From the IMG/VR virus record IMGVR_UViG_3300032213_002584, positions 1 through 38,789 of that record: a DNA stretch of 38,789 nt; one strand, written 5' to 3'. A program made the translations under genes and the position numbers. Numbering within the stretch: position 1 is the first letter of the stretch; every line of letters begins with the position of its first letter. The stretch comes from a virus. Its lineage: Duplodnaviria; Caudoviricetes. Shown here piece by piece: positions 61-37,323 of the stretch. Under the pieces are notes generated by a model that was given only the letters and a program-made list of their open reading frames with translations, ran no database searches and had not been told where the DNA came from.

Positions 61-66
61 TTACAC
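61..66 (-). promoter_or_regulatory. GTGTAA putative late-promoter motif
   Basis: GTGTAATATT, 26 nt upstream of ATG 34; intergenic. Confidence 0.7.
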
Positions 67-96
67 GGAAATTATTATATATTTAATAATATTAAG

Positions 97-1107
97 TTAA
101 ATACCATGCAATTTAAGCATATCTTGCATACTTAGCGTTCCACCCTTTTTGGCAGCTTCGGCCATTAAGCTGATGCCACTTTCATTTTTTATTCCAGCTT
201 TTTGAAGATCTTCCTTTGATGCACCAATAATAGAAGTACCAATTGCGCCTTCTGTATTCTTTTCTATATTGCTCTTTTGCATCATTTCTTCTGCATTTTT
301 AGATGATTCTATCCATTCTATGAGCTTTTCTGGATCTTCATAGTATTCATTTGGAGGTTGATGCTTTGCTGAAGAGATTAAATTCTTAAAATATCTAGCA
401 TATGTAAAAGTCTCAATTTGATAGAAGCTTAAATTAACTATAGGTTTACCATATAGATTATATAAACTATCATTAGATACATTGAATAATGATAAAAAAT
501 ATGATGATAAAGCAATATTCTTTAAATTATTATCTGCAAAATTAGATACAATCTTATTGTAAGTTCTTACCAAGTCAGTAATATCTTGATTATCCAGTTC
601 TTCGAACTCCTCACTTTTAAAGAATAGATTATTTAAATTAAAATGATCATATATGGAGATATACATATAATATTCATTAATTTTTTTAGTAGCATAATCT
701 TCAGCAGTATATCCAATTAACTCTCTCTTTTTGAAATTCAATTCGAACAATTTAATCTCTTCTTTTTTAATTTCATTTTTAAAGAAGTCAATATCAGTTT
801 GCTTAAATACCTTAGACTTTGACTGTTTTAAGCTTATTAGATATTTTCTTATCTTTTCTATTTCTTGATTACTTTCCTCGGTCCAAAGCTTTTCTTGTAT
901 GATATAATCTTCTTTTTCTTTTTGAGTTGGAAGTTTATTTTGAATAGCTTTTTGATAATACTCATCTTTTTTGATATCTATATCGCCAGCATCTAAGCTA
1001 CTGAGATGCTTTATGTATATTTTTTTATCTTTATAAAGAGAGGTAGAATAACCATTAAGAATATCCGTAAAAAATAATTTTAATTTATTTTTTGGTATCT
1101 TTTCCAA
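97..1107 (-). CDS. putative tail assembly chaperone-like protein (336 aa, TTG start)
   Basis: Long helical, charged ORF between the tail tube and the presumed tape measure gene; function by synteny only. Confidence 0.4.
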   Translation of the reverse strand: MEKIPKNKLKLFFTDILNGYSTSLYKDKKIYIKHLSSLDAGDIDIKKDEYYQKAIQNKLPTQKEKEDYIIQEKLWTEESNQEIEKIRKYLISLKQSKSKVFKQTDIDFFKNEIKKEEIKLFELNFKKRELIGYTAEDYATKKINEYYMYISIYDHFNLNNLFFKSEEFEELDNQDITDLVRTYNKIVSNFADNNLKNIALSSYFLSLFNVSNDSLYNLYGKPIVNLSFYQIETFTYARYFKNLISSAKHQPPNEYYEDPEKLIEWIESSKNAEEMMQKSNIEKNTEGAIGTSIIGASKEDLQKAGIKNESGISLMAEAAKKGGTLSMQDMLKLHGI

Positions 1108-1112
1108 GGCAT

Positions 1113-1859
1113 TTAACTTTCCTTAGTTTCTGATTCTAGTATTTTCTCGAATTCGGCTTGAGTAGATGCTCTACCCATATACCAAAATGTTGTATAAAGA
1201 ACTAATTTCTTGGCTAGGTCCTCAAAGAATGGTTCTGATTTTTCTTCTGCAACATCATAGAATTTAAGCTTTTCTTCGAAAGATCCATCACCAAATACTG
1301 GATTAATATTTCCAGATTCATCCTCTTGATAGCTCAAGTTAAGAACCCACCATAAAACAGTTTTATTTCTAGCCCTATTTTCTGCTGTTTGATCAAATAA
1401 ACTAGCTTGTGCCATTTCATAGTCTTGAATTTTATTTCTAGTATCATTAATCTCTTCGATCAATTTTTTATACTTTTCTTTTTCATCTTCTGATCTTGTT
1501 GATTCATCTTTAATTGATAATCTTTGAAAATCATTTTGAAGATTAAATAGCTTCATATATGAGGTGGCATATTCTTCCTTATCTTTTTCACTAAAAACAC
1601 CACCATCATCAACAAATCTTTTTGCAAGTAAAGCTTTGGTTAGTAGACCAGCTTTGATACCTTCTGATAGTCTAACTCCATAAAATAATTCAGCCTCATC
1701 GAACATTATTCTATTTGGCTTTCTTAAGAATAACTTTTGGGCAATTTGCTTTTTAACTTTTTTAATAGTCTTTACTTCTTCGTTTTTTTCATTTACAGAA
1801 GTTTCAACTTCTTCTGCTTCTACCTCTTTATTGATTTTGAATTCAAATAGTTTTTTCAT
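1113..1859 (-). CDS. putative tail assembly chaperone (248 aa)
   Basis: Acidic/helical ORF with AAAGGA SD, downstream of the tail tube; synteny. Confidence 0.45.
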   Translation of the reverse strand: MKKLFEFKINKEVEAEEVETSVNEKNEEVKTIKKVKKQIAQKLFLRKPNRIMFDEAELFYGVRLSEGIKAGLLTKALLAKRFVDDGGVFSEKDKEEYATSYMKLFNLQNDFQRLSIKDESTRSEDEKEKYKKLIEEINDTRNKIQDYEMAQASLFDQTAENRARNKTVLWWVLNLSYQEDESGNINPVFGDGSFEEKLKFYDVAEEKSEPFFEDLAKKLVLYTTFWYMGRASTQAEFEKILESETKES

Positions 1860-1876
1860 ATATTATTCCTTTATTT

Positions 1877-2131
1877 TTACCTTGGGAGCTTATCTATAAA
1901 CTCCTTTACCTTTTTAAAATGAACAACTCCACCAATTGTTTTGATAAATTTATTCTTTTTTTCACTATCCCAAAGATCATATTGTTTCAAGAAATTTGGT
2001 CCAGTAACAACTGAATAGTTAACAGAAGATACTCCAAATTCCTTTTGAAGCGATCTTTGATTGGATTGAAGATCTAAATTACTTATAATAATTTGATCTG
2101 CATTGAAAATATTCTTGAATTTTACTTTCAT
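1877..2131 (-). CDS. hypothetical protein (84 aa)
   Basis: ATGA overlap with the upstream 74-aa gene; same strand as the operon. Confidence 0.7.
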   Translation of the reverse strand: MKVKFKNIFNADQIIISNLDLQSNQRSLQKEFGVSSVNYSVVTGPNFLKQYDLWDSEKKNKFIKTIGGVVHFKKVKEFIDKLPR

Positions 2132-2352
2132 TTTAATTTAATATCTAGAGCTTGAAATTGTTCTTCTAATTCTCTTATTGCATCATTAGCATGATCAAGT
2201 ATTCTTTTACGGATTTTTGTATAAGACTCATCGTTTATATTATATCCATTATCTTGTAAATCTTCTAGAATAAAAAAGAAATTCTTATAGATATTCGTAA
2301 TTTTTCTACGAACTTGAAATAAAGCAAACTCTTTAATTTTATCCTGTTCCAT
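2128..2352 (-). CDS. hypothetical helical protein (74 aa)
   Basis: ATG preceded by three AAGGTT repeats and a GTGTAT motif. Confidence 0.75.
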   Translation of the reverse strand: MEQDKIKEFALFQVRRKITNIYKNFFFILEDLQDNGYNINDESYTKIRKRILDHANDAIRELEEQFQALDIKLK

Positions 2353-2382
2353 AAACCTTTAAACCTTCAACCTTAACAGTAT

Positions 2383-2388
2383 ATACAC
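2383..2388 (-). promoter_or_regulatory. GTGTAT putative late-promoter motif
   Basis: Directly after the U-tract of the tail-tube terminator, 30 nt upstream of ATG 2352. Confidence 0.6.
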
Positions 2389-2419
2389 AAAAAATAACCC
2401 CCACGAGGGGGGTTATTTT
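2389..2419 (-). terminator. Rho-independent terminator after the tail tube gene
   Basis: Minus strand AAAATAACCCCC-CTCGT-GGGGGTTATTTTTT. Confidence 0.85.
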
Positions 2420-2441
2420 AAGTATATTTTATATTAACAGA

Positions 2442-3560
2442 TTAATATAATCCGCTGAAGAATAAGCCATTTGCTCTATCTTCTGGTCCACCTACTTGTG
2501 AACTGAAGTTTAGAGTTACGGATTTATTAGATCCGATATCAGAGCTAAATTCTTGACTATCTAATTTTGCTCTCTTCAATGTATATCTTACAACTGTTTG
2601 ATCTGTGATAGTTGGATTTTTGATAAAGATTGATGGATTATAGAATGTTGAGCTATCTCCACTAACTAATTGAGCTAGTGTTCCAGCACTCAAATCTGTT
2701 ACTTGAGCATCTACTGATAAACTAACTGTAACTGGGAAGTCGATTTCTCTTGCGAATGCGAACTTACTTCCTAGTCTTTCGATTGGAGTACGAGTCAAAT
2801 CAAAACTCAAACTATAGCTTTGAATATTGAAAGTAGCAGTATTTGCTCCAATGGTAGCTGGTAAACTTAATGTAATATCTCCTGGACGCAATGCGCTAAT
2901 TCCAGAAGCACCAACTGTATTAAGAGCGGTACTACTAGCAGCTACTGGTAGTGCATATTTAACATTACCAATTTCTGAACCATTCTCAGGATTAATAGCT
3001 GGAATGATATTACCACTGACTCCGTTTTGGAAAACCATGTTAAGGCCTTCAACATTAACTGAAGCTGTTGGGAAGTTTCCTACTGAACCTTCGGTTGTAT
3101 AGGATGCAATGAATCCGTTTCCGATTCCGATAACTCCTACATTATTTGATGTATCAGTATTTCCAACTGCGTCTGCACCTTCTGTAACAGTTTTAATGAA
3201 GAAATTCTTTTCGTCTTCTACTTTAGACAAGATACCAGAAATAGCACTTACTTCTGGTTGAGTTCCACTTTGAACATAAAAACCTAAACTATATTCATTA
3301 GTAAGGTTTGCTAAAATGTAACTAAAGTCTAATGCGACTGTTGGTGAGGTTAAGATAACTCGATCAATAGCAGCTAATTGACCGAATTGATTAACATCGG
3401 TACGATCTACAGTAAAGCTGTAGTTGGCTGTTTGAACTCTTTGTAATTGATCAACCAAATTTGTTCCTTCGGTTGCACTGTTTCTAAAATGGAAACCTGT
3501 TGCTGGTGTTGGTCCAGCGTATAAAGCTTCAGATTGATAAATAATACGATTTCTTGGCAT
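2442..3560 (-). CDS. major tail tube protein (372 aa)
   Basis: Beta-rich S/T/G/V protein with tube-like segments (RVQTANYSFTVDRTDVNQFGQ; IQSYSLSFDLTRTPIERLGS). Strong AGGAGA SD, own promoter motif and terminator. Follows the neck/terminator genes. Confidence 0.7.
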   Translation of the reverse strand: MPRNRIIYQSEALYAGPTPATGFHFRNSATEGTNLVDQLQRVQTANYSFTVDRTDVNQFGQLAAIDRVILTSPTVALDFSYILANLTNEYSLGFYVQSGTQPEVSAISGILSKVEDEKNFFIKTVTEGADAVGNTDTSNNVGVIGIGNGFIASYTTEGSVGNFPTASVNVEGLNMVFQNGVSGNIIPAINPENGSEIGNVKYALPVAASSTALNTVGASGISALRPGDITLSLPATIGANTATFNIQSYSLSFDLTRTPIERLGSKFAFAREIDFPVTVSLSVDAQVTDLSAGTLAQLVSGDSSTFYNPSIFIKNPTITDQTVVRYTLKRAKLDSQEFSSDIGSNKSVTLNFSSQVGGPEDRANGLFFSGLY

Positions 3561-3585: not shown

Positions 3586-3591
3586 TTACAC
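3586..3591 (-). promoter_or_regulatory. GTGTAA putative late-promoter motif
   Basis: GTGTAATAAATA, 25 nt upstream of the tail tube ATG 3560. Confidence 0.75.
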
Positions 3592-6019: not shown

Positions 6020-6025
6020 TTACAC
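6020..6025 (-). promoter_or_regulatory. GTGTAA motif, 8 nt before ATG (leaderless-type)
   Basis: GTGTAATATATTATATG; no SD. Confidence 0.75.
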
Positions 6026-6570: not shown

Positions 6571-7497
6571 TTATAGGTTAAATGAATTAATTCCTCCAGT
6601 GCAATTTATGAAAATTCCACTTGCAGTTCCACCACCTCCGCCAAATGATTGATTTCCTCCAGTGCAGTCTGTAAAAGTTCCATTTGCAGTTCCGAACAGT
6701 CCACCAAATGATTGATCTTCTCCAGTGCAATTTGTAAAAGTTCCACTTGCAGTTCCACTATTTCCGCCAAATGAAAAATCTTCACCAGTGCAGTCTGTAA
6801 AAGTTCCATTTGCAGTTCCACCATCTCCGCCAAATGAATAAGATCGGCCAGTACAACCTATGAAATCTCCACTTGCAGTTCCACTAGCTCCGCCAAATGA
6901 AAAATTTCCACCAGTGCAATCTTTAAAAGTTCCACTTGCATTTCCAAGGTATCCGCCAAATGAAAAATCTTCACCAGTGCAGTCTGTAAAAGTTCCACTA
7001 TACTCTATTCCCAATCTCATGCTCCAAACATAACTTGAATTAGAAGTAAATAATACATTTTCTATATATGTTAAATTTAAATTAGTATTTGGAAAATAAG
7101 CTGATGGATCCGTTGAATTATTTGCTTTAATATATCCGAAATTACTATTTTCTATCTTTAGATTATGTAACTTAACATCATTTGCGGTTTGTTGAATTGT
7201 GCCTCTGTTTGCTGCTCCAACATTACTTGTGATATAATGCTTGCTTCTATCTGAGGTAGAACCAATAATATCTACATATTGAGTGTCAAGAATTAAACTT
7301 TGAGTTCCAAGATTATATATTGCTGGTGGCAAAATAACAGCTAATCTATTAGAAGTTGATAAAGATGCGCCGTTAGGAGTTACAGTTTTTGCAAGAGCAT
7401 AAGCCGCTAAAAGATTATTACCATTAACTATAGCATTATCTGTTACTTTAACAGTAACATAATTGGCGCTATTTAACTTATTTAATATATCAGCCAT
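6571..7497 (-). CDS. beta-solenoid repeat protein, probable virion/fibre-associated (308 aa)
   Basis: C-terminal 21-aa repeats (S/N)GTFTDCTGxxxSFGGxxGTA. Confidence 0.7.
   Translation of the reverse strand: MADILNKLNSANYVTVKVTDNAIVNGNNLLAAYALAKTVTPNGASLSTSNRLAVILPPAIYNLGTQSLILDTQYVDIIGSTSDRSKHYITSNVGAANRGTIQQTANDVKLHNLKIENSNFGYIKANNSTDPSAYFPNTNLNLTYIENVLFTSNSSYVWSMRLGIEYSGTFTDCTGEDFSFGGYLGNASGTFKDCTGGNFSFGGASGTASGDFIGCTGRSYSFGGDGGTANGTFTDCTGEDFSFGGNSGTASGTFTNCTGEDQSFGGLFGTANGTFTDCTGGNQSFGGGGGTASGIFINCTGGINSFNL
6590..7000 (-). repeat. 63-bp coding tandem repeat, about 6.5 copies
   Basis: ccagtgcagtctgtaaaagttcca-like unit recurring every 63 nt. Confidence 0.9.
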
Positions 7498-7498
7498 T

Positions 7499-8041
7499 TT
7501 AACTTACTCCATTATCTGCACTTAGGGTCACCCAACCTGTGTAACCTATGTTATTTACACCTAAGAGCTGCAAGCTCTCGTTCTTATAAAGGTTAATGTT
7601 CAAGAATCCATCTATAGTTCTTTGACCAGATCCTGTTATTAACAATATTCCAGTATTAAGATTTTTAACATAATAATTTATACCAGAAGTTATTCCACTT
7701 GGTAAAGTGCCTCTTATATTGTTTGAACTATTAACAATATTTATATAAGTATTACCAAATGTAAAATTAGAATTAACATAATTATAAGATGATAATTTCT
7801 TATTTGTTATTTGAAGAGTATCAAAAGAACCTGTTTGAGCGAAAGTTTTATTTCCGCTTATTGTTTGATTTCCAGTTATATAAACGATTGTATTTGGTAA
7901 AACTGCAGCTTCGCCACTCAAAAGAACACCAGTTCCATTTACTGTTGGACGTGAAGCAAAAGTTTTAACTCCAGAAATAATTTGATTTCCAGTGGCATAA
8001 ACAGGAAGATTTTTATCAATAATGTGTGTTACTGTTGCCAT
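7499..8041 (-). CDS. short fibre-like virion protein (180 aa)
   Basis: Two TGNQxISGxKTF motifs, the SRPTVNGTGVLLSGEA module and a small beta-sandwich C-terminus. Confidence 0.7.
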   Translation of the reverse strand: MATVTHIIDKNLPVYATGNQIISGVKTFASRPTVNGTGVLLSGEAAVLPNTIVYITGNQTISGNKTFAQTGSFDTLQITNKKLSSYNYVNSNFTFGNTYINIVNSSNNIRGTLPSGITSGINYYVKNLNTGILLITGSGQRTIDGFLNINLYKNESLQLLGVNNIGYTGWVTLSADNGVS

Positions 8042-12237: not shown

Positions 12238-12243
12238 TTACAC
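12238..12243 (-). promoter_or_regulatory. GTGTAA motif, 8 nt before ATG
   Basis: GTGTAATATTTTATATG. Confidence 0.75.
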
Positions 12244-14877: not shown

Positions 14878-14883
14878 ATACAC
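14878..14883 (-). promoter_or_regulatory. GTGTAT motif, 9 nt before ATG
   Basis: GTGTATATTATATAGATG. Confidence 0.7.
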
Positions 14884-15279: not shown

Positions 15280-15285
15280 TTACAC
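15280..15285 (-). promoter_or_regulatory. GTGTAA putative late-promoter motif
   Basis: 27 nt upstream of ATG 15252, downstream of the capsid terminator. Confidence 0.65.
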
Positions 15286-15327: not shown

Positions 15328-15361
15328 ATAAAAAACCCGAGGAATTGCTTCCTCGGGCTTT
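15328..15361 (-). terminator. Rho-independent terminator after the major capsid gene
   Basis: Minus strand CCCGAGGAA-GCAA-TTCCTCGGG-TTTTTT (9-bp stem, GNRA loop). Confidence 0.9.
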
Positions 15362-15381: not shown

Positions 15382-16476
15382 TTAGCGAGTTTGTCTCAAG
15401 CCTACGATTGTACGGGCATCAACACAAACGCGACCTTCTTCGAGAGAACCATAGAATCCAGTTTTCTCAGAGCGAGAAACGAATTGGTCGTCAGGAAGAA
15501 CGGTGAATGTTCCACCGCTTTCTGATTGACGAGCAACTGGACGAATGAATCCTTCGCGACTTAGGTCTAGACCAACTACAATTTCTCCTGTGCTGATATC
15601 GGCTTGAGCACCTCTAAGAGCATTATAAAGAATATTGTATTTAGCACCAACTCCGAGTTCTACTAGGTCATGAATTGTTACGCCGAACAATTCACTGGCA
15701 CCAGCGGAACGGAAGATTTGTTCACGAACTGCTTCTGGAGCAGTTTCGAATGTCCTTGATCCAGCGGTGTTTGTGCCGATTGGATTGAAGGCGATTGAGC
15801 GGATATCAGCCATAACTTCTGGACTTACGAATAGATCGGTTAGTCCGTAGCTATCAACAGTTGTGCCACCAGCATAAGAAGTATTAATTCTTTTTACTAG
15901 TTTCATCAAGTTGCTGAGATCTGCCAATTGGAATGTATTAGCTTGTGAGGCAAGAATATGTCCACCAACAACGCTGTCATTAGTTAGGGAACCATCTCTG
16001 GCTTCAGCAAGAGCTTTTAGAACTACTGCCCAAGCATTACGCTCTTGTTTTACAAGAACTTCATTGCTCATGCGTTCTACTGCTTTGCTTACAACATCAA
16101 GACGGCCACGACGAGCATAGCGCTTTAAGAAGCTAACTGCACTGTCAAGACGGTATGTTGAGACTTTTAGTTCACTGAAGCCTTCTACTGTAGAGGTAGG
16201 AAGACCACCTGCTACATTTTGACTCCAAACTGAAACGTAATCAACGCCTTCATTGTACCATAGATCAAGAGGAATGCTTGGAGCATCGTCTTCATCATAT
16301 GGGGACTCTGAATAAATTGCGCTAGCTGTTCCAGCTTGTAGCAATACTTTGCTTACGACTGGACCAATGAAAGCTGCAAAAGCTTCGGTAGCTTCTCTTG
16401 CTACTGCAACATCTCTGCTGCCCATAGCTTTGATTAGCTCTACTTGTTCTGGTGTATTTTTTAATTTGATTTTCAT
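15382..16476 (-). CDS. major capsid protein (HK97 fold, 364 aa)
   Basis: Downstream of protease/scaffold and decoration genes; AGGAGA SD; strong terminator; biased codons; long-helix segment DVVSKAVERMSNEVLVKQERNAW and LFVSPEVMADIR motif. Confidence 0.8.
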   Translation of the reverse strand: MKIKLKNTPEQVELIKAMGSRDVAVAREATEAFAAFIGPVVSKVLLQAGTASAIYSESPYDEDDAPSIPLDLWYNEGVDYVSVWSQNVAGGLPTSTVEGFSELKVSTYRLDSAVSFLKRYARRGRLDVVSKAVERMSNEVLVKQERNAWAVVLKALAEARDGSLTNDSVVGGHILASQANTFQLADLSNLMKLVKRINTSYAGGTTVDSYGLTDLFVSPEVMADIRSIAFNPIGTNTAGSRTFETAPEAVREQIFRSAGASELFGVTIHDLVELGVGAKYNILYNALRGAQADISTGEIVVGLDLSREGFIRPVARQSESGGTFTVLPDDQFVSRSEKTGFYGSLEEGRVCVDARTIVGLRQTR

Positions 16477-18630: not shown

Positions 18631-18636
18631 ATACAC
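18631..18636 (-). promoter_or_regulatory. GTGTAT motif, 9 nt before ATG
   Basis: GTGTATATTGAATATATG; the ORF track used the motif's GTG as the start codon. Confidence 0.7.
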
Positions 18637-19239: not shown

Positions 19240-19245
19240 ATACAC
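19240..19245 (-). promoter_or_regulatory. GTGTAT motif, 9 nt before ATG
   Basis: GTGTATAATTATACTATG. Confidence 0.7.
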
Positions 19246-20103: not shown

Positions 20104-20730
20104 TTATATCTTAATTGATTCTTCTATTAATTTAGCTTCTGCATCTCTTCTTCTGCTCATGCCTTTTTCTATACTTCCACCTATCCATATTCTTTTCATA
20201 TTTCTTATTTGATTAGCTATAAAAGATAACGCTTTTTGATCAAAAATAGTTGTTATTGCCATGCCATCTCTTATTAATTTCATTTCGCGCCGTCTATCAC
20301 CTTCTAATGCATTTCCTCTATTAAATACAAGGCTAACTAATCCACCTTTTGCATCTTCTGGAAGATTATCAAAATTAGGAAAAGTTTCTTTTGTTAAATT
20401 CCAGAACTTTGTTACTGTTTTATTATTAAATACTTTTAATGCAAGATCCCAAGGAATAACTATATCTTTTAATCCTCTAATAAGATTCTTTGCATTATAT
20501 CCTTTGATACCAACTACTTTATATAATCTATCAAAAATTTCTTTAGGAAGATCTTTCCAATCTTCACTAAATTCTGCTTTATTTACATAGCCTAAATCAT
20601 AACCAACGCCAATTGTAACTCCGCTTTGACCTTCTGGCCAAGCTGGATTTTTTAAAAATTTATTATAATAGTTTTCTCCACCACCAACTTCAAATTCAAG
20701 AATAAGATCTAAGGATTTTTTGCTTAACAT
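20104..20730 (-). CDS. endolysin, lysozyme-fold muramidase (GH24/pesticin-like, 208 aa)
   Basis: LILEFEVG catalytic Glu, SGVTIGVGYDLG, LVSLVFNRG, GMSRRRDAEA. Confidence 0.85.
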   Translation of the reverse strand: MLSKKSLDLILEFEVGGGENYYNKFLKNPAWPEGQSGVTIGVGYDLGYVNKAEFSEDWKDLPKEIFDRLYKVVGIKGYNAKNLIRGLKDIVIPWDLALKVFNNKTVTKFWNLTKETFPNFDNLPEDAKGGLVSLVFNRGNALEGDRRREMKLIRDGMAITTIFDQKALSFIANQIRNMKRIWIGGSIEKGMSRRRDAEAKLIEESIKI

Positions 20731-23603: not shown

Positions 23604-23609
23604 TTACAC
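23604..23609 (-). promoter_or_regulatory. GTGTAA motif, 6 nt before ATG
   Basis: GTGTAATATACTATG. Confidence 0.7.
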
Positions 23610-26108: not shown

Positions 26109-26114
26109 TTACAC
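26109..26114 (-). promoter_or_regulatory. GTGTAA motif, 8 nt before ATG
   Basis: GTGTAAATTATATTATG. Confidence 0.75.
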
Positions 26115-27339: not shown

Positions 27340-27345
27340 TTACAC
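27340..27345 (-). promoter_or_regulatory. GTGTAA putative late-promoter motif
   Basis: 22 nt upstream of ATG 27317, leader carries tandem TAAGG. Confidence 0.7.
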
Positions 27346-27347: not shown

Positions 27348-29255
27348 TTACGCTTTACTATGATATAATAGTGCAGCCAGATAATTAGTAACTTGATGTT
27401 CGGCAGCAATTTCTTGAATATTATTCACTTGATCTTGGTTTTGATCAAATGGTTTTTCTATATAATTTTCAATTTTAGATTCCCAATTTTCTGGTGATTC
27501 ATTAGCAATAATTACTTCCAAGAGTTTATCAACGTTTTCAATATGAGCATTACTCAATTTCTTAACATTAAGTTTCTTTCTGAAAGTAGATTTAATTTCT
27601 TCTTCTAATTTTTGAGCGGAAGCAATATTCTCTTTAATTTTAACTAAAGAATAATTTGCATTTGTGCCGATTGGTTTAACATTCTTTGTTGATTGTGGTA
27701 TGCCAGTTGATCCGCTTGGTCTTCCACCAGAAGAAGGTTGAGATCCACCAATTAATGGTTGATAGAAACCTTGATCCCTTTGTTCTCTATATTGTGATTG
27801 AGATTCTATTGATTCCTCTGGAGTTGGAAGTCTTCCAGTTTCAATAGCTTTAATACCTTCAGAAGGAGTAAGAATTCCAAGTTCCATAAGTCTATTATAG
27901 ACTCTAGAATATTGAACATCATCTTTAAGATCAATATCTTCAAAATTAGGTTGTGGAAAGTTTTTAAATCCTAAATCCTTACTGATTCTTCTGATTTCTG
28001 GAACTAAGAATTCATTTATAAAGATTGTTCTAGCTTGTTTTAATCTTTCGATGAAAACTTGAACTTTAATACTTGTATTAGCAAATTTTTCACTACCAAT
28101 AAGAATATTATTTAAACCAATTTGAATATCTCTATCAACGACTTCATATTTTTCTGGTCCAATTAAGCTTCCAATATTTGGTATAACAAACTCTGCTTTT
28201 GTTGTATAGTCTGCGATTAGTACTCTGCCAACACTTTGATTTTCAAACAAAGATTGCATGGCTTGTAAATTCTTTTGATTGATTCCACCTTTTTCTGGAT
28301 CAGTTCCCATTGTAACTAATAGAATTGCTTGTTGAGTTGTTCTTGTAACAGCCATATCCATTTTCTTCATTTCGAGCTTCCAGTTAATATCATCTAGAAC
28401 TGGAAAACCCATTGGAATAGAAAGTGGCTCGTAATCTTGTTTTTTATAAAATACAGCACACATCTTTTGACTATCTAATGGAATAAGTACGGAACGGTTA
28501 CCTTTATTTTTAATTTGGTCTTTCACTTGAGGTGGAAGGGATTCAAAAACTTCAAAATCTTCTGGAGTTTTAGGATTTCTTAATCTTTCCAATTCGTAAT
28601 CTGTTACTAGTTTGTAATAATATCCAACGCTAAAATTAATTGTTCCACCAAAATATACATCAGCAGGATTAATAATACTATATCTAGCTGGAATTTTAAT
28701 TGACTCACTTTGAGAAAATGAATTTTTTAATTTATTTCCAAATACTTGAGTAATTCTATTTGCGTCTTCTGGTGTTAGCTCAGTATCGAATCTATAAATA
28801 AAAACATTTCCACTTCTATAATATTCTCTGAAGAATTGATCTTGAAAACTAGCTAGATTAATTTTCCTAAAATATGCTTCAAAAAACTCTCTTGATTTTT
28901 GACTTCCACCAGTTAAATAAATCGAACTACTGGAAAATTCAGTCATTAAATCAATAGTGTTTCTAAAAATACCAACATTATAATAAGCTTTTTGACAAAG
29001 AATAACTGCATCTCTTACGTCAAGAGTAGCTAAATTTTGTATTGAAGCACTATATCTAAAAGGAATTAATCCTCGATCAATATTTATAAATCTATCAGTT
29101 CTTTCTATATCTGCTGCAGCATTTCTTCTAACAGGAGAACTAGCCCTAATTTCATTTCTACTTGCTTTGCTTTCTGATCCATAAACCATAAATGGTGGTA
29201 CTTCTTGATTTTCTGAAGCTTTTGATTCTTTGAGTTTTTTAGTATTTTTAGCCAT
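27348..29255 (-). CDS. portal protein (635 aa)
   Basis: Directly downstream of the large terminase; portal-like AYYNVGIFRNTIDLMTEF and FFREYYRSGNVFIY segments. Confidence 0.8.
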   Translation of the reverse strand: MAKNTKKLKESKASENQEVPPFMVYGSESKASRNEIRASSPVRRNAAADIERTDRFINIDRGLIPFRYSASIQNLATLDVRDAVILCQKAYYNVGIFRNTIDLMTEFSSSSIYLTGGSQKSREFFEAYFRKINLASFQDQFFREYYRSGNVFIYRFDTELTPEDANRITQVFGNKLKNSFSQSESIKIPARYSIINPADVYFGGTINFSVGYYYKLVTDYELERLRNPKTPEDFEVFESLPPQVKDQIKNKGNRSVLIPLDSQKMCAVFYKKQDYEPLSIPMGFPVLDDINWKLEMKKMDMAVTRTTQQAILLVTMGTDPEKGGINQKNLQAMQSLFENQSVGRVLIADYTTKAEFVIPNIGSLIGPEKYEVVDRDIQIGLNNILIGSEKFANTSIKVQVFIERLKQARTIFINEFLVPEIRRISKDLGFKNFPQPNFEDIDLKDDVQYSRVYNRLMELGILTPSEGIKAIETGRLPTPEESIESQSQYREQRDQGFYQPLIGGSQPSSGGRPSGSTGIPQSTKNVKPIGTNANYSLVKIKENIASAQKLEEEIKSTFRKKLNVKKLSNAHIENVDKLLEVIIANESPENWESKIENYIEKPFDQNQDQVNNIQEIAAEHQVTNYLAALLYHSKA

Positions 29256-29267: not shown

Positions 29268-29273
29268 TTACAC
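29268..29273 (-). promoter_or_regulatory. GTGTAA motif, 12 nt before the portal ATG
   Basis: GTGTAATATTTAAATAATATG; abuts the terminase stop codon. Confidence 0.7.
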
Positions 29274-31118
29274 TTATTTTATCATTATCGGTGTGAAAAC
29301 CTCGGATATCTCCTCTTTTGGTTGCATTATTAAATCATTATAGCACTTGAGGCCCCAATTTGCTAACATAAATGCTGAATAATTATCTTTTCTAGCTTTA
29401 TTTGCAGAAGAGCTACGCTTTAAATGTTGTGGTAAATCGAAGGATTGAGTACCTCTGCTGGTAGAAGAGTGTTCTACAAGAGTACATTGTTTTTTGGTTT
29501 GATATATTAAATCATCTTGACTTTCTATAAAATCCAACATTCCCCAATCTTTACGCTCTTCTGTTTTTAATAAGCTAGTGTCAATATTTGAATTAAATTG
29601 AGTATTAAAAAATTCATCATTAGCGCAAGTTCTACTACCAAACCATACTTTTTTATAATCAATACATGCTTGTAAATGTTCATTTGCTTTTCTAATAAAA
29701 GAACTAGTGAATACTTGATTAATTGCTATTCTTCTATCAGATAAGTTATATTTATTTTTACTATTTTTAAGCATATTATCGTAATCTTGACCCTCTAGAT
29801 CAGAGTCAAAATCAAATGTCTTAATATCTAATTTGCTATTTTTAAATAATTCAGATTCATTACAAGCAGATAAAAATACATCCGCTCCTGCATTATCAAG
29901 AATCATAAATACTATATTAAAATTATTTAAAAGATAATAAAGATAGCCTACATGATTTTTTAAATTTCCAAGTCCAGCATAACTATTAACCAAAATACCT
30001 TGTTTAGTTTCATCATCAACCTCAAGTAATGCCATAGCAAAATAATCTGCATTTGGACTATCGCTCATATTAGGATCGATTCCAAGTATATATTTTTTAT
30101 TTGGCTCGCCTTTTAATAATGTATGAGGTTTTTCACCAATTTTAATTGTGCATTCTTCCATCTTTTTGGCATTAAAATAACTATCACTTCCATCAGTAAA
30201 TCTAGCGCAATATTCTCTTAAGAAACTTGAATGACTTGATCCACCAGCTTGAGCTTCTTCAATAATAGTTTTATCAATCATTTCTTCTGGTAGTGCTTCA
30301 TAACTCAATTGACTTACAAAGTACTTTGCTTCGTTTACTTCTTTATCTAATATCTTATCGCTCCATTCATTATAAGTTTTATATAAATTTTCAAATGTAT
30401 AACTGGCAGATGAAAGAGCTATCATTTTACTTGTATTTTCAAAAACCATTCTCTCTGATTCTTTCATTGATCCTTCTGCGATCAACTTATCTTCTAACTC
30501 TCTTATCTCCATGCGCTCTTTAATATTTTGTGGAGCTACTAAGAATGGCATCAATACATTTTTGATAATTTCTTCTGGAAGCAAAAGGAACTCGTCAAGC
30601 ACAAGAATATTAGCTCGGAATCCTCGAATCTTTTCGCCATTAAGAGGAATTGCTACTATACTGCCACCATTAATTTGCCATTCAAATTGATCATTTCTTT
30701 TTGCTTTTGCTCCAAAGCATTGAGCAAGTAATTCTGCGCCTTTGCTATCTACTATTTTTTCAAGATTATTGAAAATAAAACGTGCAGTTCTAAATGTTGG
30801 ACCAGCAATAAGAATTTTTGTATTAGGTTCAAATATACATTGAAGAAAACAAAATACTGCTGCCATAAATGATTTTCCACAACCACGACCGAACACGCAC
30901 ATATTAAAATTTCTATTCATTAAAGCTTTTAAATGCACTTCTTGATATGCAGCTAATTTGACTCCACTTATTAATTCAGTTGTAAATCCAATATTTGCTC
31001 TCAAAAATTTAGCTAAACTTATTCTAGCCTCTTTATCATTGAGATATCCCTTTAGTTGAGCTAATTCAGCATTAACGTCTTTAACTTCTCTAATGTATTT
31101 ATCTGGACAATATATCAT
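29274..31118 (-). CDS. terL: terminase large subunit (614 aa)
   Basis: YQ adenine-binding motif, Walker A GRGCGKS, IRGFRANILVLDE Walker B, LSSA motif III, FLREY, RNase H-like YILGIDP...DYFA and KDNYSA. Confidence 0.93.
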   Translation of the reverse strand: MIYCPDKYIREVKDVNAELAQLKGYLNDKEARISLAKFLRANIGFTTELISGVKLAAYQEVHLKALMNRNFNMCVFGRGCGKSFMAAVFCFLQCIFEPNTKILIAGPTFRTARFIFNNLEKIVDSKGAELLAQCFGAKAKRNDQFEWQINGGSIVAIPLNGEKIRGFRANILVLDEFLLLPEEIIKNVLMPFLVAPQNIKERMEIRELEDKLIAEGSMKESERMVFENTSKMIALSSASYTFENLYKTYNEWSDKILDKEVNEAKYFVSQLSYEALPEEMIDKTIIEEAQAGGSSHSSFLREYCARFTDGSDSYFNAKKMEECTIKIGEKPHTLLKGEPNKKYILGIDPNMSDSPNADYFAMALLEVDDETKQGILVNSYAGLGNLKNHVGYLYYLLNNFNIVFMILDNAGADVFLSACNESELFKNSKLDIKTFDFDSDLEGQDYDNMLKNSKNKYNLSDRRIAINQVFTSSFIRKANEHLQACIDYKKVWFGSRTCANDEFFNTQFNSNIDTSLLKTEERKDWGMLDFIESQDDLIYQTKKQCTLVEHSSTSRGTQSFDLPQHLKRSSSANKARKDNYSAFMLANWGLKCYNDLIMQPKEEISEVFTPIMIK

Positions 31119-32050
31119 AATAGTTTTAAATCATATGCTAATTGAAGATCTACTTTACTATAAAAACATTTACTAGCAAATATAGATTCAATTGTCCTCT
31201 TCATCTCTTCTCTACCATCAACAAATAAGAATTGCAAATTACTATATTCTTGAATCAAGGATCTTACGTTATGAAATATATATTCTGGCGTAGCTTTAAT
31301 CTTTTTACTAATATGAGGAAGATATTGAAAGCTTAATGCATTTGCTAGTTTTTCTTCAACAATAACAATCAAATAAGAATTATTCTTTTGAGCTTTATCT
31401 ATTTCATTTTTGAATCTATCAAAATTCTTGACGCTTAATGTGCTTATAAAGTCACTTAGGCTTTTTCTTTCTATATAACATCCACAATTATCATTACTAC
31501 AAGCATAATCTCCAAAAGATAATGTTTTAATTTCGAATGGAATATCAAATTTAAGCCAACTTTGCTCTCTTGTATCAACGTAAATTGTATCTTTTTTATT
31601 TAATTTATTATTGAATTGATCTGTTATATTAGATGGATGAATAAATTTATTTTCTAAACCAATACTTGAACACACATCATAATAGTCATGAAATATTTTA
31701 TTATAAAATACAATCGATGGGCTCATTATAGTTCTAAGTTCTATCTGTGATGGAGAATATATTAGATTTTTATCTTTCTTTCTTTTGATTAAAAGATTTC
31801 TACAATATTCTTGTGCTTGATCTAATGACTGTTCTTTAAGCCATTTTTTCATATTATTCTTATCATTAAAATCACTATTTAAGTATTGATCTTTAGTTTT
31901 GAAATTAATTGTTTCGCCAGTAAGAAGATCTTTTTTGGGATAATAAGCGTGATAGTATTTCTCTTTATTTAAACCATAGCCTCTTAACGCAAGATGAAGA
32001 CTTTTTTCATCTTTAAATTCTTTCCCATCTACTTTACATATCACACTCAT
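31115..32050 (-). CDS. ERCC4/XPF-family nuclease with N-terminal extension (311 aa)
   Basis: IYVDTREQ, LSFGDY, IERKSLSDF (ERKxxxD), RFKNEI, LIVIVEE. Confidence 0.85.
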   Translation of the reverse strand: MSVICKVDGKEFKDEKSLHLALRGYGLNKEKYYHAYYPKKDLLTGETINFKTKDQYLNSDFNDKNNMKKWLKEQSLDQAQEYCRNLLIKRKKDKNLIYSPSQIELRTIMSPSIVFYNKIFHDYYDVCSSIGLENKFIHPSNITDQFNNKLNKKDTIYVDTREQSWLKFDIPFEIKTLSFGDYACSNDNCGCYIERKSLSDFISTLSVKNFDRFKNEIDKAQKNNSYLIVIVEEKLANALSFQYLPHISKKIKATPEYIFHNVRSLIQEYSNLQFLFVDGREEMKRTIESIFASKCFYSKVDLQLAYDLKLL

Positions 32051-33141
32051 CCATTTAAAATCTCATCCTTTGAGATTCCTAATATTTTACATTTAATTTC
32101 ATCCATAGTAGATAAACGATCAATTTCTTTTTCAATAGTTTTCTTGCGGAGATCTGCCATCTTTAGGAGCTTTGCTCTGCTGTCTTCTTCTTTCCACATT
32201 TGCACAAGATTAATAATTGATGCAGTTTCTTTTACTTGTTTACTTAGTCTATCGCTTCTCTTAACCTTTAAATCATTATTTAACTTTTGTTGTCTATTAA
32301 CACAATCATTGTATTCTTTACGAGCAGTACTACTTGCTTCTACAATTGTCATTGGAATTTTACCATCCTCTTGCATTGATAATTCTATTTGATTTTGAAG
32401 TACATTAATTGTTTGTTGTATGCTAGATGATATAACTACTTCTGTGCAAAGAACTATATATTGATCGACTTCTTCTTGAGTTAAGTCACTCTTATCATAA
32501 GTATATCTAACAAAACTGCTTTCAAAAAGTTCTCTGTCTGGTTCATTATCATAAATATTAATTTGATGTATGAATCTATGAGTATTCATATAGCCAATAA
32601 GAGAATTAATTTCTTTTTTATGTTTATGAGTTAATTTGTTCTTATCTATACCATCTAAAACATATTTATTGACTTTAGCAATCATTCTTTCTTCACTACG
32701 AGGTGGTCTATATCCTTCTGTTGCAGCATTTTCATTTTCTGTATTATTGAATTTAATATTAGTAGGTATATTTTTCATATACTCTAATACTGATCTAGTT
32801 TCCTGACAAAGATTAGTTAAAGTATCATTTTTGAAAAGTAATCTCGCTATCTCAAGGCCAGTCATTGTAATACAATTATTACTAATAAATTCTTTTTGCT
32901 CTATTGTTAATTCTATTAAACCTTTAGCTTGATATTCATGACTCTTCTTTGGCACAATTTGTCTTGAAGCTAAAAATAGTTTAACAGCTTTACCTTCTTT
33001 TGATCTTCCATCTAGATCATCTCTATCAAATGCAATTTTTACAAGCTCTATAAGAGAAGGTGGATTATTTGGTCTACTATTCCATTCTTGTAGTAGCTTT
33101 AATTGCTGCTCTTCAGTCAATATTAAGACTTCTTCTGACAT
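32047..33141 (-). CDS. hypothetical helical protein, candidate terminase small subunit (364 aa)
   Basis: Two HTH-like N-terminal repeats (LTEEQQ...SLIELVKIAF; LTIEQK...TGLEIARLLF) and a C-terminal coiled coil; coupled upstream of nuclease and terL. Confidence 0.45.
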   Translation of the reverse strand: MSEEVLILTEEQQLKLLQEWNSRPNNPPSLIELVKIAFDRDDLDGRSKEGKAVKLFLASRQIVPKKSHEYQAKGLIELTIEQKEFISNNCITMTGLEIARLLFKNDTLTNLCQETRSVLEYMKNIPTNIKFNNTENENAATEGYRPPRSEERMIAKVNKYVLDGIDKNKLTHKHKKEINSLIGYMNTHRFIHQINIYDNEPDRELFESSFVRYTYDKSDLTQEEVDQYIVLCTEVVISSSIQQTINVLQNQIELSMQEDGKIPMTIVEASSTARKEYNDCVNRQQKLNNDLKVKRSDRLSKQVKETASIINLVQMWKEEDSRAKLLKMADLRKKTIEKEIDRLSTMDEIKCKILGISKDEILNG

Positions 33142-33148: not shown

Positions 33149-33832
33149 TTATACGATATCTATCTCGCCATTATATAAATATTTTCTTACTTTTAACATT
33201 ATAGATTTTTTAAGATTTTTAACTTGTTTATATCCAGCTGATCTATTCTTTTCTGAAGTTCTATATCCCATTATTTTCGCTGCTTCTTCTTCTGTTTTGT
33301 GTTGAATATATACTAGGTTGTAGAATTTCCATTCTATTGGTTTTAGTACTTGTATCATTTTGGTATGAATATTTTTTGCTGTTCTTTCGATATTAGTTAA
33401 ATCTTCTTTCATTGAAAATACTTCTTGAGTATGATTCTCTAATGTTACTGGAAGCTTTACATCATAAGCTGATTTTTTACTCTTTTCCCACTTAGCGTAT
33501 AGTGGGCAAGAGTTGCATTGTTTGCCATAAATTGAACATAAATTTTCGCCTTCAAATGCTGAACATTTTAAACATGGACGAGAATAGTTACCATAATTAT
33601 TGCGAATTAAATTTTTAATCTGATTACTGATAATTCTATTAACCCAAGGAGCTAGGGTCTTAGTTTGATTATATAGCTTCCACTTTTTATAAATATGTAT
33701 TCTTAATATTTGAGCAACATCATTAAAATCCATCCAACCTAAACTAGTTAAATGCCATTTACCACGGCGCTTGTAAATCTCGTTATCTATTTCTTGGATC
33801 TTCTCTTCAAAAGAAGCCTTTTTATTAGACAT
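33149..33832 (-). CDS. ECF-like RNA polymerase sigma factor with Cys-rich insertion (227 aa)
   Basis: Region 2: DFNDVAQILRIHIYKKW...LAPWVNRIISNQIKNLIR. Region 4: LKPIEWKFYNLVYIQHKTEEEAAKIMG. Linker CLKC...C...CNSC. Confidence 0.8.
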   Translation of the reverse strand: MSNKKASFEEKIQEIDNEIYKRRGKWHLTSLGWMDFNDVAQILRIHIYKKWKLYNQTKTLAPWVNRIISNQIKNLIRNNYGNYSRPCLKCSAFEGENLCSIYGKQCNSCPLYAKWEKSKKSAYDVKLPVTLENHTQEVFSMKEDLTNIERTAKNIHTKMIQVLKPIEWKFYNLVYIQHKTEEEAAKIMGYRTSEKNRSAGYKQVKNLKKSIMLKVRKYLYNGEIDIV

Positions 33833-34299
33833 TAGCTTCTCTTAGTTTTTCTAATTGAACCAGCTTCTCTTGCGAAATCTTCTAAAACTTGTTTTTTTGA
33901 TGGTCTTTTTCCAGCCTTAACAGCTCTTGATTCTCTTGGAGCGTCTGGTTCAGTTCCAACTATGTCCTTTAATTTTTGACCTCTCTTTGGACGACTTTCT
34001 GCTTCTACTTCGAGATTATCAATTTCTGGAACAGAGTGTACTTCTTGATCTTGATCATAATCATCTTCATCATCAATATAATCTTCTATATCTTCGACCC
34101 GTGCTCTTTGTGGTCTATTAATTTTTGAGCTTGTTATTTTATTAATTTTAGTTGGGAAATTAGCTTTTGGTTCTTCTTTAACCATTTTAACTTCTACTGG
34201 AGTAACCTTTTCGAATGACTTGCCACAAGTAGAGCAAAAAACTGGTTTTTTATCAATATATTCTGTTGGAGACCCACATGAAGTACAATATCTTTTCAT
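33832..34299 (-). CDS. zinc-ribbon protein with acidic disordered tail (155 aa)
   Basis: YCTSCG...FCSTCG; D/E-rich tract; TAATG coupling to the sigma gene. Confidence 0.8.
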   Translation of the reverse strand: MKRYCTSCGSPTEYIDKKPVFCSTCGKSFEKVTPVEVKMVKEEPKANFPTKINKITSSKINRPQRARVEDIEDYIDDEDDYDQDQEVHSVPEIDNLEVEAESRPKRGQKLKDIVGTEPDAPRESRAVKAGKRPSKKQVLEDFAREAGSIRKTKRS

Positions 34300-34307: not shown

Positions 34308-34336
34308 ATTATATATAAAAAAAGATTTTATTCTAA
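34308..34336 (-). promoter_or_regulatory. sigma70-like promoter for the Zn-ribbon/sigma/packaging operon
   Basis: TTAGAA-17 nt-TATAAT, 8 nt before ATG 34299; no GTGTAA here. AT-rich context lowers specificity. Confidence 0.45.
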
Positions 34337-34346
34337 ATTATTTAAT

Positions 34347-34741: not shown

Positions 34742-34747
34742 TTACAC
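34742..34747 (-). promoter_or_regulatory. GTGTAA motif, 8 nt before ATG
   Basis: GTGTAATTATAAATATG. Confidence 0.75.
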
Positions 34748-35473: not shown

Positions 35474-35490
35474 GCTGCTTACAGAATATA

Positions 35491-35496
35491 TTACAC
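35491..35496 (-). promoter_or_regulatory. GTGTAA motif, 17 nt before the phoH ATG
   Basis: GTGTAATATATTCTGTAAGCAGCATG. Confidence 0.7.
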
Positions 35497-35500
35497 TAAA

Positions 35501-35977
35501 TTATATGTATACAGTCCAAATACTATTAAATTCTTGTTCTGTTAGATTGTAGATTTTTCCATTTTGTGGTTCAATAAAAATTGGTCTAAAGTTATCTGAT
35601 CCATCATCATTTTTGCCATCATCAATATAAATTATATTAATTGCATGGCCGCCGCTCAAATTATTTTCTGCTTTAGCTATTGCCATATAGTTAATAACTC
35701 CTACAGCTATTCCATTTGCAGTACTCTCAATAACTTGTTCATAATATCCACAACTAAAAAGTTTAAAAGCATCTGCAAAATTATCACAATCCCATCTATG
35801 AACCCATCTTGTTAATTTTAATGATTTTAACCATTGCCAATACTTTGGAAATAGCTCATCTCTTACCATATCAAGTGTAGGACAAAAGTAATCCTTATCA
35901 GAAAGAACAAAATTTCTAGGAAGATTTTTATTAGATATTCTCCAAGGATTAATTAATTGTTGAGATGATATAATCAC
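35501..35977 (-). CDS. papain-like cysteine protease/transglutaminase-fold protein (MOA agglutinin C-terminal-like, 158 aa)
   Basis: WDCDNFA (Cys), GGHAINI (His), FIEPQNG (Glu). Confidence 0.7.
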   Translation of the reverse strand: MIISSQQLINPWRISNKNLPRNFVLSDKDYFCPTLDMVRDELFPKYWQWLKSLKLTRWVHRWDCDNFADAFKLFSCGYYEQVIESTANGIAVGVINYMAIAKAENNLSGGHAINIIYIDDGKNDDGSDNFRPIFIEPQNGKIYNLTEQEFNSIWTVYI

Positions 35978-37080
35978 AATCTATCTATTCTTGCTATATT
36001 CAAGCAACCAAATACTGGTTGACCAATTTGAGCTTGAAAGTCTTCGTTTGTAAATTCATGAATACTTCCTCTGCTTTGGTTTCCAGAGAAAGTATCAGTT
36101 CCACTATCCACAAGAATTCTTATTGGGTCGCTGTCTTCAACTGGAATTTGTAGATAGTATTTGCTCTCGACTATAACAGTGTATTTTTGCAACTCTTCGT
36201 CTTCAAGATTTACTTTTCTAACTCGAGTTTTCCACTTTTGACTAGTTGCGAATTCGATTCCTCCTTCGCTTCCTTCGCCAGTATCAGCAACAAGTGTTCC
36301 AGCCCATGGACTCCAGCAATTTTCTGGTCCACTACCACAAGTAGCTCCATTACAATTCTGTGGTCCATTACTTACTAAAATTGATAATTTTCTCCCTGCG
36401 CTATTTTTAACTAAATTAAAGAAAAAATCCCAATCTTTTACATCTTCTACTTTTTGTACAAAATTACTAGAAACCTGTCCTTTGCGCCATGCTTCTGGTT
36501 GTTCAGGAGCATACCCTACCTCAAAAAAACTATTTGTACAAGTTATTGTTCTATTTTCGCAAGAAATACTTGTGGTACAAATTTCAGAAACTCCATCCCC
36601 AAGAGAACAACTATAAGATATTCCAGGCTCAGGCTCAGGATTCATACGAACATCACATTCTTCTTCTGGTTCAGCTTCACAACTGCTGGTTCTATTCTCT
36701 TTTAGACAATTAGCTGAATTGCTAAAGGTCTGGCGAGGAACTGCAACTGGACTACTTCCATTTTCACCACAATTTTTAGTAGATGTAACTGAACTTATGA
36801 TCTCTCCAAATCTATCTACTGTATGTATATATTCGTCGCTAAGAGAAGAATAAGCGTTAAAAACTATTGGAGATACATCTATATACTCATAATCATCCGC
36901 ATAATTAAGACTATAATTCCAATTTGATGTAATTTTACTATAACGACCTGCACAGGGCGCAGTTAGTCCTGCAAATCCAATAGGATTTTTAGTCGTACTT
37001 GCTTCTATGCTTTCAAATAGAAAAAGATTATTAAAATCGCATCCTCTATTCCCAGCTTTTACATCAGTAATTTGTCCCAT
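35974..37080 (-). CDS. Cys-rich acidic hypothetical protein (368 aa)
   Basis: Long ORF overlapping the downstream gene by 4 nt; many Cys; no family recognised. Confidence 0.75.
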   Translation of the reverse strand: MGQITDVKAGNRGCDFNNLFLFESIEASTTKNPIGFAGLTAPCAGRYSKITSNWNYSLNYADDYEYIDVSPIVFNAYSSLSDEYIHTVDRFGEIISSVTSTKNCGENGSSPVAVPRQTFSNSANCLKENRTSSCEAEPEEECDVRMNPEPEPGISYSCSLGDGVSEICTTSISCENRTITCTNSFFEVGYAPEQPEAWRKGQVSSNFVQKVEDVKDWDFFFNLVKNSAGRKLSILVSNGPQNCNGATCGSGPENCWSPWAGTLVADTGEGSEGGIEFATSQKWKTRVRKVNLEDEELQKYTVIVESKYYLQIPVEDSDPIRILVDSGTDTFSGNQSRGSIHEFTNEDFQAQIGQPVFGCLNIARIDRL

Positions 37081-37084
37081 AAAT

Positions 37085-37309
37085 TTATCTTTTAGAATTA
37101 ATATTATATCCTATTGTGATATAATTTTGGGTTGGGGCCAAATATAAAGCTTTGGGCGCTATAGGTTTTAATGGTTTTTTATCAATAATTTCTGTTTTGT
37201 TATTTTCAATCGGCGCTATTTGTTGTTTCTTTTCTTTCATATGAGATAAAATATATAAGATTGATCCAATTATTATTGTTGTTATTAGTTTCTTATAGTC
37301 TAATATCAT
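37085..37309 (-). CDS. small N-terminally anchored membrane protein (74 aa)
   Basis: KKLITTIIIGSILYILS hydrophobic helix; GTGTAA 8 nt upstream. Confidence 0.7.
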   Translation of the reverse strand: MILDYKKLITTIIIGSILYILSHMKEKKQQIAPIENNKTEIIDKKPLKPIAPKALYLAPTQNYITIGYNINSKR

Positions 37310-37317
37310 ATAATTTA

Positions 37318-37323
37318 TTACAC
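37318..37323 (-). promoter_or_regulatory. GTGTAA motif, 8 nt before ATG; first of the minus-strand late region
   Basis: GTGTAATAAATTATATG. Confidence 0.75.

Follow-up and report, generated by a model that had tools for sequence, protein, structure and literature searches.

A family-wide GTGTA(A/T) box with predicted promoter function in uncultured tailed phages, and a candidate sigma factor to read it

The window analyzed here is an entire IMG/VR virus record, IMGVR_UViG_3300032213_002584, of 38,789 nt and about 31% GC content. Its minus strand carries one block of packaging, head, tail, and lysis genes from an uncultured tailed lake phage, and the hexamer GTGTA(A/T) recurs just before gene starts on that strand. 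What is this box, and what reads it? GTGTA(A/T) is a real element found across the phage family. It is very probably a promoter, as predicted from its placement, and given that function most of its messages are highly likely to begin at or nearly at the start codon. A phage sigma factor encoded at 33149–33832, here called sigma A, is considered likely to be the reader, and somewhat less firmly the box probably needs no base-specific contact at -35. The account as a whole, a one-piece promoter read by sigma A and yielding mostly leaderless messages, is favored a shade less firmly than any of its parts.

All 16 minus-strand positions listed in an earlier, sequence-only reading of the window carry GTGTA(A/T). 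The hexamer occurs 20 times on the minus strand and 6 times on the plus strand, and the sum of 26 is not above the 30.9 expected from shuffles; the signal is therefore positional, not numerical. Sixteen of the 20 minus-strand copies lie within 40 nt before one of 42 starts (p=1e-18, with 0.9 expected). Among 5-mers upstream of the window's starts, GTGTA ranks first. Enrichment over shuffled sequence was upheld, with dinucleotide shuffles of the 42 upstream 40-mers averaging 1.2 and never exceeding 6, where 16 were observed. The boxes do stand just upstream of starts, as had been claimed, but three starts had been assigned to longer GTG/TTG open reading frames (ORFs) and are instead the ATGs at 12229, 18621, and 19230. 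The sequence-only reading also overlooked the sigma gene at 33149–33832, the leaderless geometry, and the presence of two distance classes. Ten sites lie 6–12 nt from the ATG and one lies at 17 nt, all without a Shine-Dalgarno (SD) word, and five lie at 22–30 nt with an SD-like word.

Both intrinsic terminators proposed for the minus strand are real. Hairpins with U-tracts at 2391–2419, after gene 2442–3560 (z -6.3), and at 15330–15357, after the major capsid gene (z -7.4), fold far better than shuffles. A box had been placed right after each; it comes within a few bases of the 2391–2419 hairpin, but about 45 nt after the other. The box is indeed absent before the plus-strand genes, although the evidence is one operon of about four genes with a sigma70-type promoter. 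Its description as a phage-specific promoter with no visible -35 that precedes mostly virion genes is well but indirectly supported; "late" follows from gene function and not from timing. Some non-structural genes also carry it, namely PhoH, GIY-YIG endonucleases, and a GNAT.

Conservation of the motif in related phage contigs, proposed earlier as a check, was confirmed. Genes of relatives were called with a simple motif-blind script that reproduces 38 of the window's 41 minus-strand ORFs and misses its plus-strand genes, and the 2,277 dereplicated genes analyzed come from the window, 173 loci, and four longer records. The box precedes 429 of 1,375 operon-first genes versus 39 of 823 coupled genes. 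By gene context, it was found at 136 of 329 genes after a gap of 9–30 nt, 196 of 761 after a longer gap, 97 of 285 in divergent arrangement, and 11 of 79 at locus edges. Distance to the start peaks at 8 nt (120 sites) and 9 nt (72 sites), and is under 6 nt at 5 of 479 sites. An SD word accompanies 5 of 343 boxes at 6–13 nt, 4 of 50 at 14–19 nt, and 51 of 81 at 20–40 nt, compared with 277 of 1,798 genes that have no box. The near and far sites differ with a Fisher p of 1e-38; such p-values overstate certainty because orthologous sites cannot count as independent.

All 12 of 12 sigma A clusters (36–100% identity) have the box above expectation, and in 9 of them it is among the top 7 words. With loci under 4.5 kb excluded, it is also above expectation in 11 of 11 further clusters, two of which have a single site, and among the top 8 words in 7. 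In the 148-kb relative G032, 19 of 40 copies are upstream of starts versus 2.9 expected. The box is constant across marine and freshwater lineages, alongside a phage-only sigma family, and genomes carry 16–30 boxes, mostly at leaderless distance. Divergent, back-to-back boxes no more than 40 nt apart number 50, versus 11 face-to-face, and 41 of the 50 are spaced 7–18 nt. G032 also has two GIY-YIG endonuclease genes, at 74109–75380 and 83709–84542, with a box at 10 and 8 nt.

The same word is avoided inside genes. Synonymous-codon shuffles of six genomes gave 216 expected copies of GTGTA against 79 observed, and 267 of TACAC against 111, ranking the two words 1 and 2 of 980 5-mers for in-gene depletion. 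Eight one-base variants of GTGTA are not depleted (ratio 0.84–1.14). Since GTGTAC and GTGTAG are likewise avoided, the unit is the pentamer, and the G before TGTA is required: ATGTA(A/T) and TTGTA(A/T) are neither enriched at 8–9 nt nor depleted in genes. Depletion of the SD word GGAGG is confined to the sense strand (0.53; CCTCC 1.11). Avoidance on both strands is the prediction for a short, self-sufficient DNA element and argues for a promoter rather than a ribosome site. These genomes also avoid restriction-like words such as CCGG and GATC, so depletion by itself is no proof of a promoter. The restriction-like words strongly avoided vary by lineage: CCGG in G001, G003, and G004, GATC in G032, and TCAGG/CCTGA in several.

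The reported lack of a -35 element held in the relatives. Across 478 pooled sites, weighted over 172 orthologue groups, information does not exceed 0.08 bit per position from -64 to -21, and the best banded word upstream of the box is a weak TTT near -40. The same test on sigma70-type promoters of relatives recovers TTGA/TTGC 16–17 nt before TAnnnT, so the method is able to detect a -35. These TAnnnT promoters lead genes for DnaB, ligase, a PHP-domain protein, GMP reductase, dCMP deaminase, and UvdE. Their -10 is most often 6 nt from the ATG (mode, 101 sites), so a leaderless layout is habitual in the phage family. The box is no disguised sigma70 -10, since T at the equivalent of sigma70 T-7 occurs at 48–49% of sites, near background. 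The extended -10 TGnTAnnnT was found at 2 of 80 upstream in the window and is not enriched.

The candidate reader, sigma A (33149–33832, minus strand), is a 227-aa protein with an extracytoplasmic function (ECF)-like sigma2 domain, a Cys4 insert, and a sigma4 domain with a long variable loop. The four cysteines (C87, C90, C99, and C109) are invariant, and the insert sits in the linker. Pfam Sigma70_r2 matches with E 4e-5. An AlphaFold model has a predicted local distance difference test (pLDDT) score of 92, and the top 11 of 50 matches in a fold search are all sigma factors, with both sigma2 and sigma4 domains matched. Profile comparison with the PDB gave ECFs, among them SigR, SigW, and a sigmaE/SigW chimera solved with GTAAAA. 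The -10 helix is well conserved, with W63 in 114, N70 in 93, Q71 in 99, N74 in 121, and R77 in 108 of 122 sequences, and the sigma4 loop and helix vary across relatives. In an alignment with sigmaE, W63 and N70 match W73 and N80, the residues that hold and open the -10 (PMC6648896, PMC6411747). The -10 of SigW is CGTA (PMC5758882). The sigma A operon itself has TAnnnT in 62 of 69 loci and the box in 8 of 69, as expected for the operon of a late sigma. GTGTA is retained in all lineages reached, and N70, Q71, N74, and R77 of sigma A in nearly all, so there is no natural variant in which motif and sigma could co-vary; queries P0143 and P0130, used in the co-variation search, returned no loci.

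If sigma A is the reader, host sigma70 would make the early, replication, and sigma A messages. Sigma A would bring host core polymerase to the GTGTA boxes, with melting at GTA as in sigmaE/sigmaW-type factors. In the proposed register, the A of GTGTA would be the loop-read base near -9 to -11, and transcription would start 7–9 nt downstream, on the modal ATG. An ATG 6–13 nt from the box would then head a message with no or almost no leader. An ATG 20–40 nt away would receive a short leader with an SD, an arrangement that may serve several highly needed genes. Box-led genes would be expressed late.

Relatives encode a second sigma factor, sigma B, located at 102856–103449 in G001 (L086:2856–3449), in the replication region; it is not in the window. 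Both sigmas are held only by the near-complete genomes G001 (87% complete) and G032 (95% complete), and a presence-absence survey of 31 records, none at least 90% complete, is hence uninformative. That sigma B, or both sigmas together, read the one-piece promoter is unlikely. Such a reading is encouraged by the presence of sigma B in both near-complete genomes, by its match to the chimera solved with GTAAAA, by the 8 of 69 sigma A operons that themselves have the box, and by the want of a promoter class of its own: nothing convincing emerged among 561 operon-first genes without either promoter type. A TAGA-type -35 is a real variant (7.4 versus 0.3 weighted, spacer 17, 11 orthologue groups), but mostly joined to a perfect TATAAT (23 of 31), so it is treated as a sigma70 variant and was set aside as a third, sigma B class. 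This variant with a perfect TATAAT precedes the sigma A operon and is kept there across distant lineages; it could be either a tuned promoter for sigma70 or a target of sigma B. Several properties of sigma B fit the box poorly. Its best PDB matches are primary SigA/RpoD, with a SigA-like region 2 without the tryptophan dyad, its loop exceeds that of ECFs by two residues, and Tyr/Phe replaces sigmaE N80. Among close relatives its sigma4 recognition helix hardly varies (0.94 versus 0.81 for sigma A), as suits a -35 reader. Between G001 and G032 the box is unchanged and sigma A keeps W63, N70, Q71, N74, and R77; in the same helix, 9 of 16 residues are identical for sigma A and 6 of 16 for sigma B. 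This sequence comparison favors sigma A as the reader. Profile-profile comparison of sigma A with sigma B gave a probability of 0.6%. Locus L192, which has a distant sigma B, has 1 of 11 box copies upstream in 20 kb, with no enrichment, which is weak evidence.

A reader from the host is improbable. In that case a host ECF sigma, or host sigma70 with a phage activator, would use the box and the phage sigmas would act elsewhere. Host ECFs typically read a GTA core (CGTA for SigW, PMC5758882), and many boxes run on as TAATAT, like TAnnnT (10 of 16 in the window). Against this, the T-7 equivalent and TGnTAnnnT behave as described above, host ECF promoters are bipartite while the boxes show no -35, and the box remains constant over marine and freshwater lineages together with the phage-only sigma family. 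It is very unlikely that the box is a translation signal, such as a non-SD ribosome site or an RNA-binding-protein site. The commonest distance of 8–9 nt is SD-like and genes at that distance have no SD, but, unlike GGAGG, the box is avoided on both strands; it seldom precedes coupled internal genes, occurs at 20–40 nt beside a separate SD, and is found after terminators and in divergent back-to-back pairs. Equally slight is the chance that the box is a repressor or other DNA-binding site, or an avoided restriction site, near ordinary promoters. The avoidance of CCGG and GATC is in keeping with a restriction site, but no enrichment before starts would be expected of one, and the box is non-palindromic, oriented with the gene, and held to a sharp 6-nt floor, with no other promoter visible there.

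Coliphage phiEco32 is a precedent for a one-piece phage promoter, and it contradicts the earlier inference of a distinct late-promoter class not recognized from characterized phages: the single-box promoters of its sigma gp36 have the same TGTA core. Its middle and late promoters have one box, tAATGTAtA, read by the phage sigma with gp79, and starts 6–8 nt downstream (PMC8948821), and the gp36 consensus AATGTA is centered at -11.5 (PMC12276001). Both systems have a single TGTA-core box before structural genes, no evident -35 consensus, and a phage sigma expressed from a host-sigma70 unit. The fold matches of sigma A include gp36 (9m7y_F, Z 7.3, root-mean-square deviation 10.8, 140 aligned, 10% identity). 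By this analogy the single-box kind is already known, and what would differ from phiEco32 is the box sequence (GTGTA(A/T), not tAATGTAtA, with G instead of AA before TGTA), the sigma family (sigma A has a Cys4 insert and sigmaE-type helix residues), the 16–30 boxes per genome, and the mostly leaderless layout; relatives also have a second sigma. No counterpart of the co-activator gp79 was identified, and no search with gp79 was made.

Sigma A resembles the group 4 (ECF) factors sigmaE and SigW in its two-domain sigma2/sigma4 build, and the box shares their GTA core (PMC6648896, PMC6411747, PMC5758882). Its loop has the same length as that of SigW, with a D-x-x-R/K motif. Unlike the bipartite promoters of ECFs, the presumed sigma A targets show no -35, and sigma A differs in the long variable loop of its sigma4 helix-turn-helix and the Cys4 domain in its linker. 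Phage T4 late promoters have the consensus TATAAATA and also precede homing-type endonuclease genes, and T4 gp55 is not known to have a sigma4 domain. The boxes would likewise be -10-only, and are many per genome and found before GIY-YIG endonuclease genes too. Their sequence is unrelated to TATAAATA, GTGTA being the top upstream word, and sigma A retains sigma4. No gp55 family match was obtained in the window, only a fold match of sigma A to sigma2 (7d7d_F, Z 6.9, 6% identity). T4 late promoters are read by gp55 with gp33 and gp45 (PMC6024815). Salmonella phage 7-11 similarly has a phage sigma (gp47) with region 4 that drives late genes, but its mapped promoter is bipartite (GTAAtg-16-aCTA), unlike the box, which has no second box at fixed spacing (PMC8948821). 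In a survey of bacteria, a -10 box placed about 12 nt ahead of the start served to infer leaderless genes (PMC3160421). The geometry here is the same, and the phage family's sigma70-type promoters fit directly; the surveyed element is TAnnnT, recognized by the bacterial primary sigma, while GTGTA is a phage-specific box. Literature searches found no paper on the GTGTA box or on the phage family, most subscription journals being outside reach.

Several points weigh against the sigma A account. In G032, only 5 of 19 boxes are in the structural block beyond 116 kb, another is at 145 kb, and several lead non-structural genes. Depletion within genes is weak in G003 (0.76 and 0.66). The sigma2 domain of sigma A scores 23.8 in Pfam, just below the curated cut-off of 24, and a Foldseek search with sigma A gave no match at E<=0.001. 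Its sigma4 helix retains fair conservation at matched depth (0.81, against 0.74 overall). Relatives do carry sigma B in their replication region, its profile also matches the sigmaE/SigW chimera (E 1e-4), and the contrast between G001 and G032 is one distant genome pair only. gp36 still needs contacts at -37 and -34 (PMC12276001), so the lack of a -35 consensus need not equal the lack of a -35 contact. The late promoter of phage 7-11 was first computed as a single motif (PMC4331800), but mapping of 5′ ends put a bipartite one in its place (PMC8948821), which calls for caution with any sequence-only promoter call.

Under the sigma A account, an abundant phage family without a cultured member gains a transcription programme that can be tested. 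The box is a practical marker of late genes and true start codons, and corrects three starts in the window alone. Should five bases without a -35 suffice for sigma A, this would bear on the minimal sequence that a sigma needs and on the role of the Cys4 insert. A bolder version is doubtful: a two-sigma programme, run by a very large aquatic phage family not yet in culture, with a Cys4-bearing ECF-type sigma, a bare five-base element, no -35 contact, no clamp-type activator, and a mostly leaderless late programme. If true, it would be a compact orthogonal sigma/promoter pair, would allow promoters packed back to back 7–18 bp apart, and would include, to our knowledge, the shortest sigma-read promoter.

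All 16 upstream boxes of the window are on the minus strand. The GTGTAA box at 61–66 is 26 nt before the ATG at 34, with an SD between; this gene is cut by the window end, and its N-terminus resembles a gene of about 2,080 aa in relatives. Directly after the 2391–2419 terminator, a GTGTAT box at 2383–2388 is 30 nt before the ATG at 2352, with an SD-like AAGG between. The GTGTAA box at 3586–3591 is 25 nt before the ATG at 3560, with AGGAG between, and leads a 372-aa putative tail tube protein. GTGTAA boxes at 6020–6025 and 12238–12243 are each 8 nt before an ATG (6011 and 12229) without SD, and the latter leads a gene of PHROG 1084 with a weak tail-fibre assembly match. At 14878–14883, GTGTAT is 9 nt before the ATG at 14868, without SD, of an 872-aa probable fibre protein. 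GTGTAA at 15280–15285, following the capsid-operon terminator, is 27 nt before the ATG at 15252, with AGGAG between. Two GTGTAT boxes lie 9 nt before an ATG without SD: 18631–18636 (ATG 18621), which heads a three-gene unit with the capsid gene last, and 19240–19245 (ATG 19230), which precedes a DUF5824 gene.

The remaining boxes are all GTGTAA. That at 23604–23609 is 6 nt before the ATG at 23597, without SD, and leads a run of membrane proteins that includes the pesticin-type endolysin (20104–20730). The box at 26109–26114 is 8 nt before the ATG at 26100 of a BppL_N/BNR tail protein, without SD. At 27340–27345 the distance to the ATG at 27317 is 22 nt, with an SD-like AAGG between. The box at 29268–29273 is 12 nt before the ATG at 29255, without SD, of the gene after terL, a putative portal. 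Boxes at 34742–34747 (8 nt before ATG 34733), 35491–35496 (17 nt before ATG 35473, PhoH), and 37318–37323 (8 nt before ATG 37309, the first gene of the minus-strand module) all lack an SD. At 7539–7560, two boxes on opposite strands stand face-to-face, 10 nt apart, inside the end of gene 7499–8041, and the minus-strand member is 57 nt before the ATG at 7497. Lake metatranscriptome RNA from eight runs, one of which yielded nothing, consists of assembled contigs, which cannot show transcription starts. One RNA contig stops at 3561, a single base ahead of the 2442–3560 ATG, and others cross the boxes at 15280, 27340, and 29268; these support a conclusion neither way.

Two sigma70-type promoters were located in the window. 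The promoter at 37659–37686 on the plus strand (TTGTGA, 16 nt, TG-extended TAGATT) is 6 nt before the ATG at 37693 of the plus-strand operon. The promoter at 34308–34337 on the minus strand has a TAGA-type -35 and TATAAT and leads the Zn-ribbon, sigma A, and terminase unit; this promoter is not a GTGTA box. The Zn-ribbon protein (33832–34299, minus strand) is coupled to sigma A and is a candidate cofactor. Its gene directly precedes sigma A in 69 of 82 unique loci, including L007 and L101, and some of the others look like start mis-calls. The middle of the protein is acidic and probably disordered, and a short helix at the C-terminus is conserved. No anti-sigma family was found among sigma A neighbors in Pfam or PHROGs.

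terL is at 29274–31118 on the minus strand, and PhoH, BppL_N tail proteins, and the pesticin-type endolysin were assigned in the same block using Pfam and PHROGs. The major capsid candidate (15382–16476, minus strand) has a weak Pfam match below the cut-off (PF25209, E 0.002). terL shares merely 23–26% identity with those of c-st, Basilisk, and phiCD211. IMG/VR is rich in relatives, whose sizes reach at least 134–167 kb, and lake metatranscriptomes contain close relatives. Sigma A has 1,942 relatives; tblastn of sigma A against 50,697 GenBank phage records gave no match, and none of the GTDB contigs searched for sigma A or terL carries either. Some homologues are proteins of metagenome-assembled genomes labeled "Caulobacteraceae", which may be misbinned contigs. 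In G001, proteins with PEP-CTERM and PATR matches (L081:8616–11760) lie near a FecR-domain gene. PEP-CTERM and PATR are associated with Verrucomicrobiota and Planctomycetota, which hints at a host of the Planctomycetes-Verrucomicrobia-Chlamydiae (PVC) type.

The plus-strand operon is short, with about four genes from 37693. Its GC content is higher (37693–38766), and it encodes a cell-wall hydrolase (Pfam Hydrolase_2, E 7.5e-13) whose true ATG is likely 38389. Its first gene is similar to the first gene of G001. The 364-aa protein encoded at 32047–33141 on the minus strand, between sigma A and an ERCC4 nuclease and terL, is possibly a small terminase; YonG is its nearest named look-alike (score 0.81, a lead only). 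Between the divergent modules, the intergenic stretch at 37427–37613 contains repeated GGGTAGGG words and is possibly an origin, packaging, or end region.

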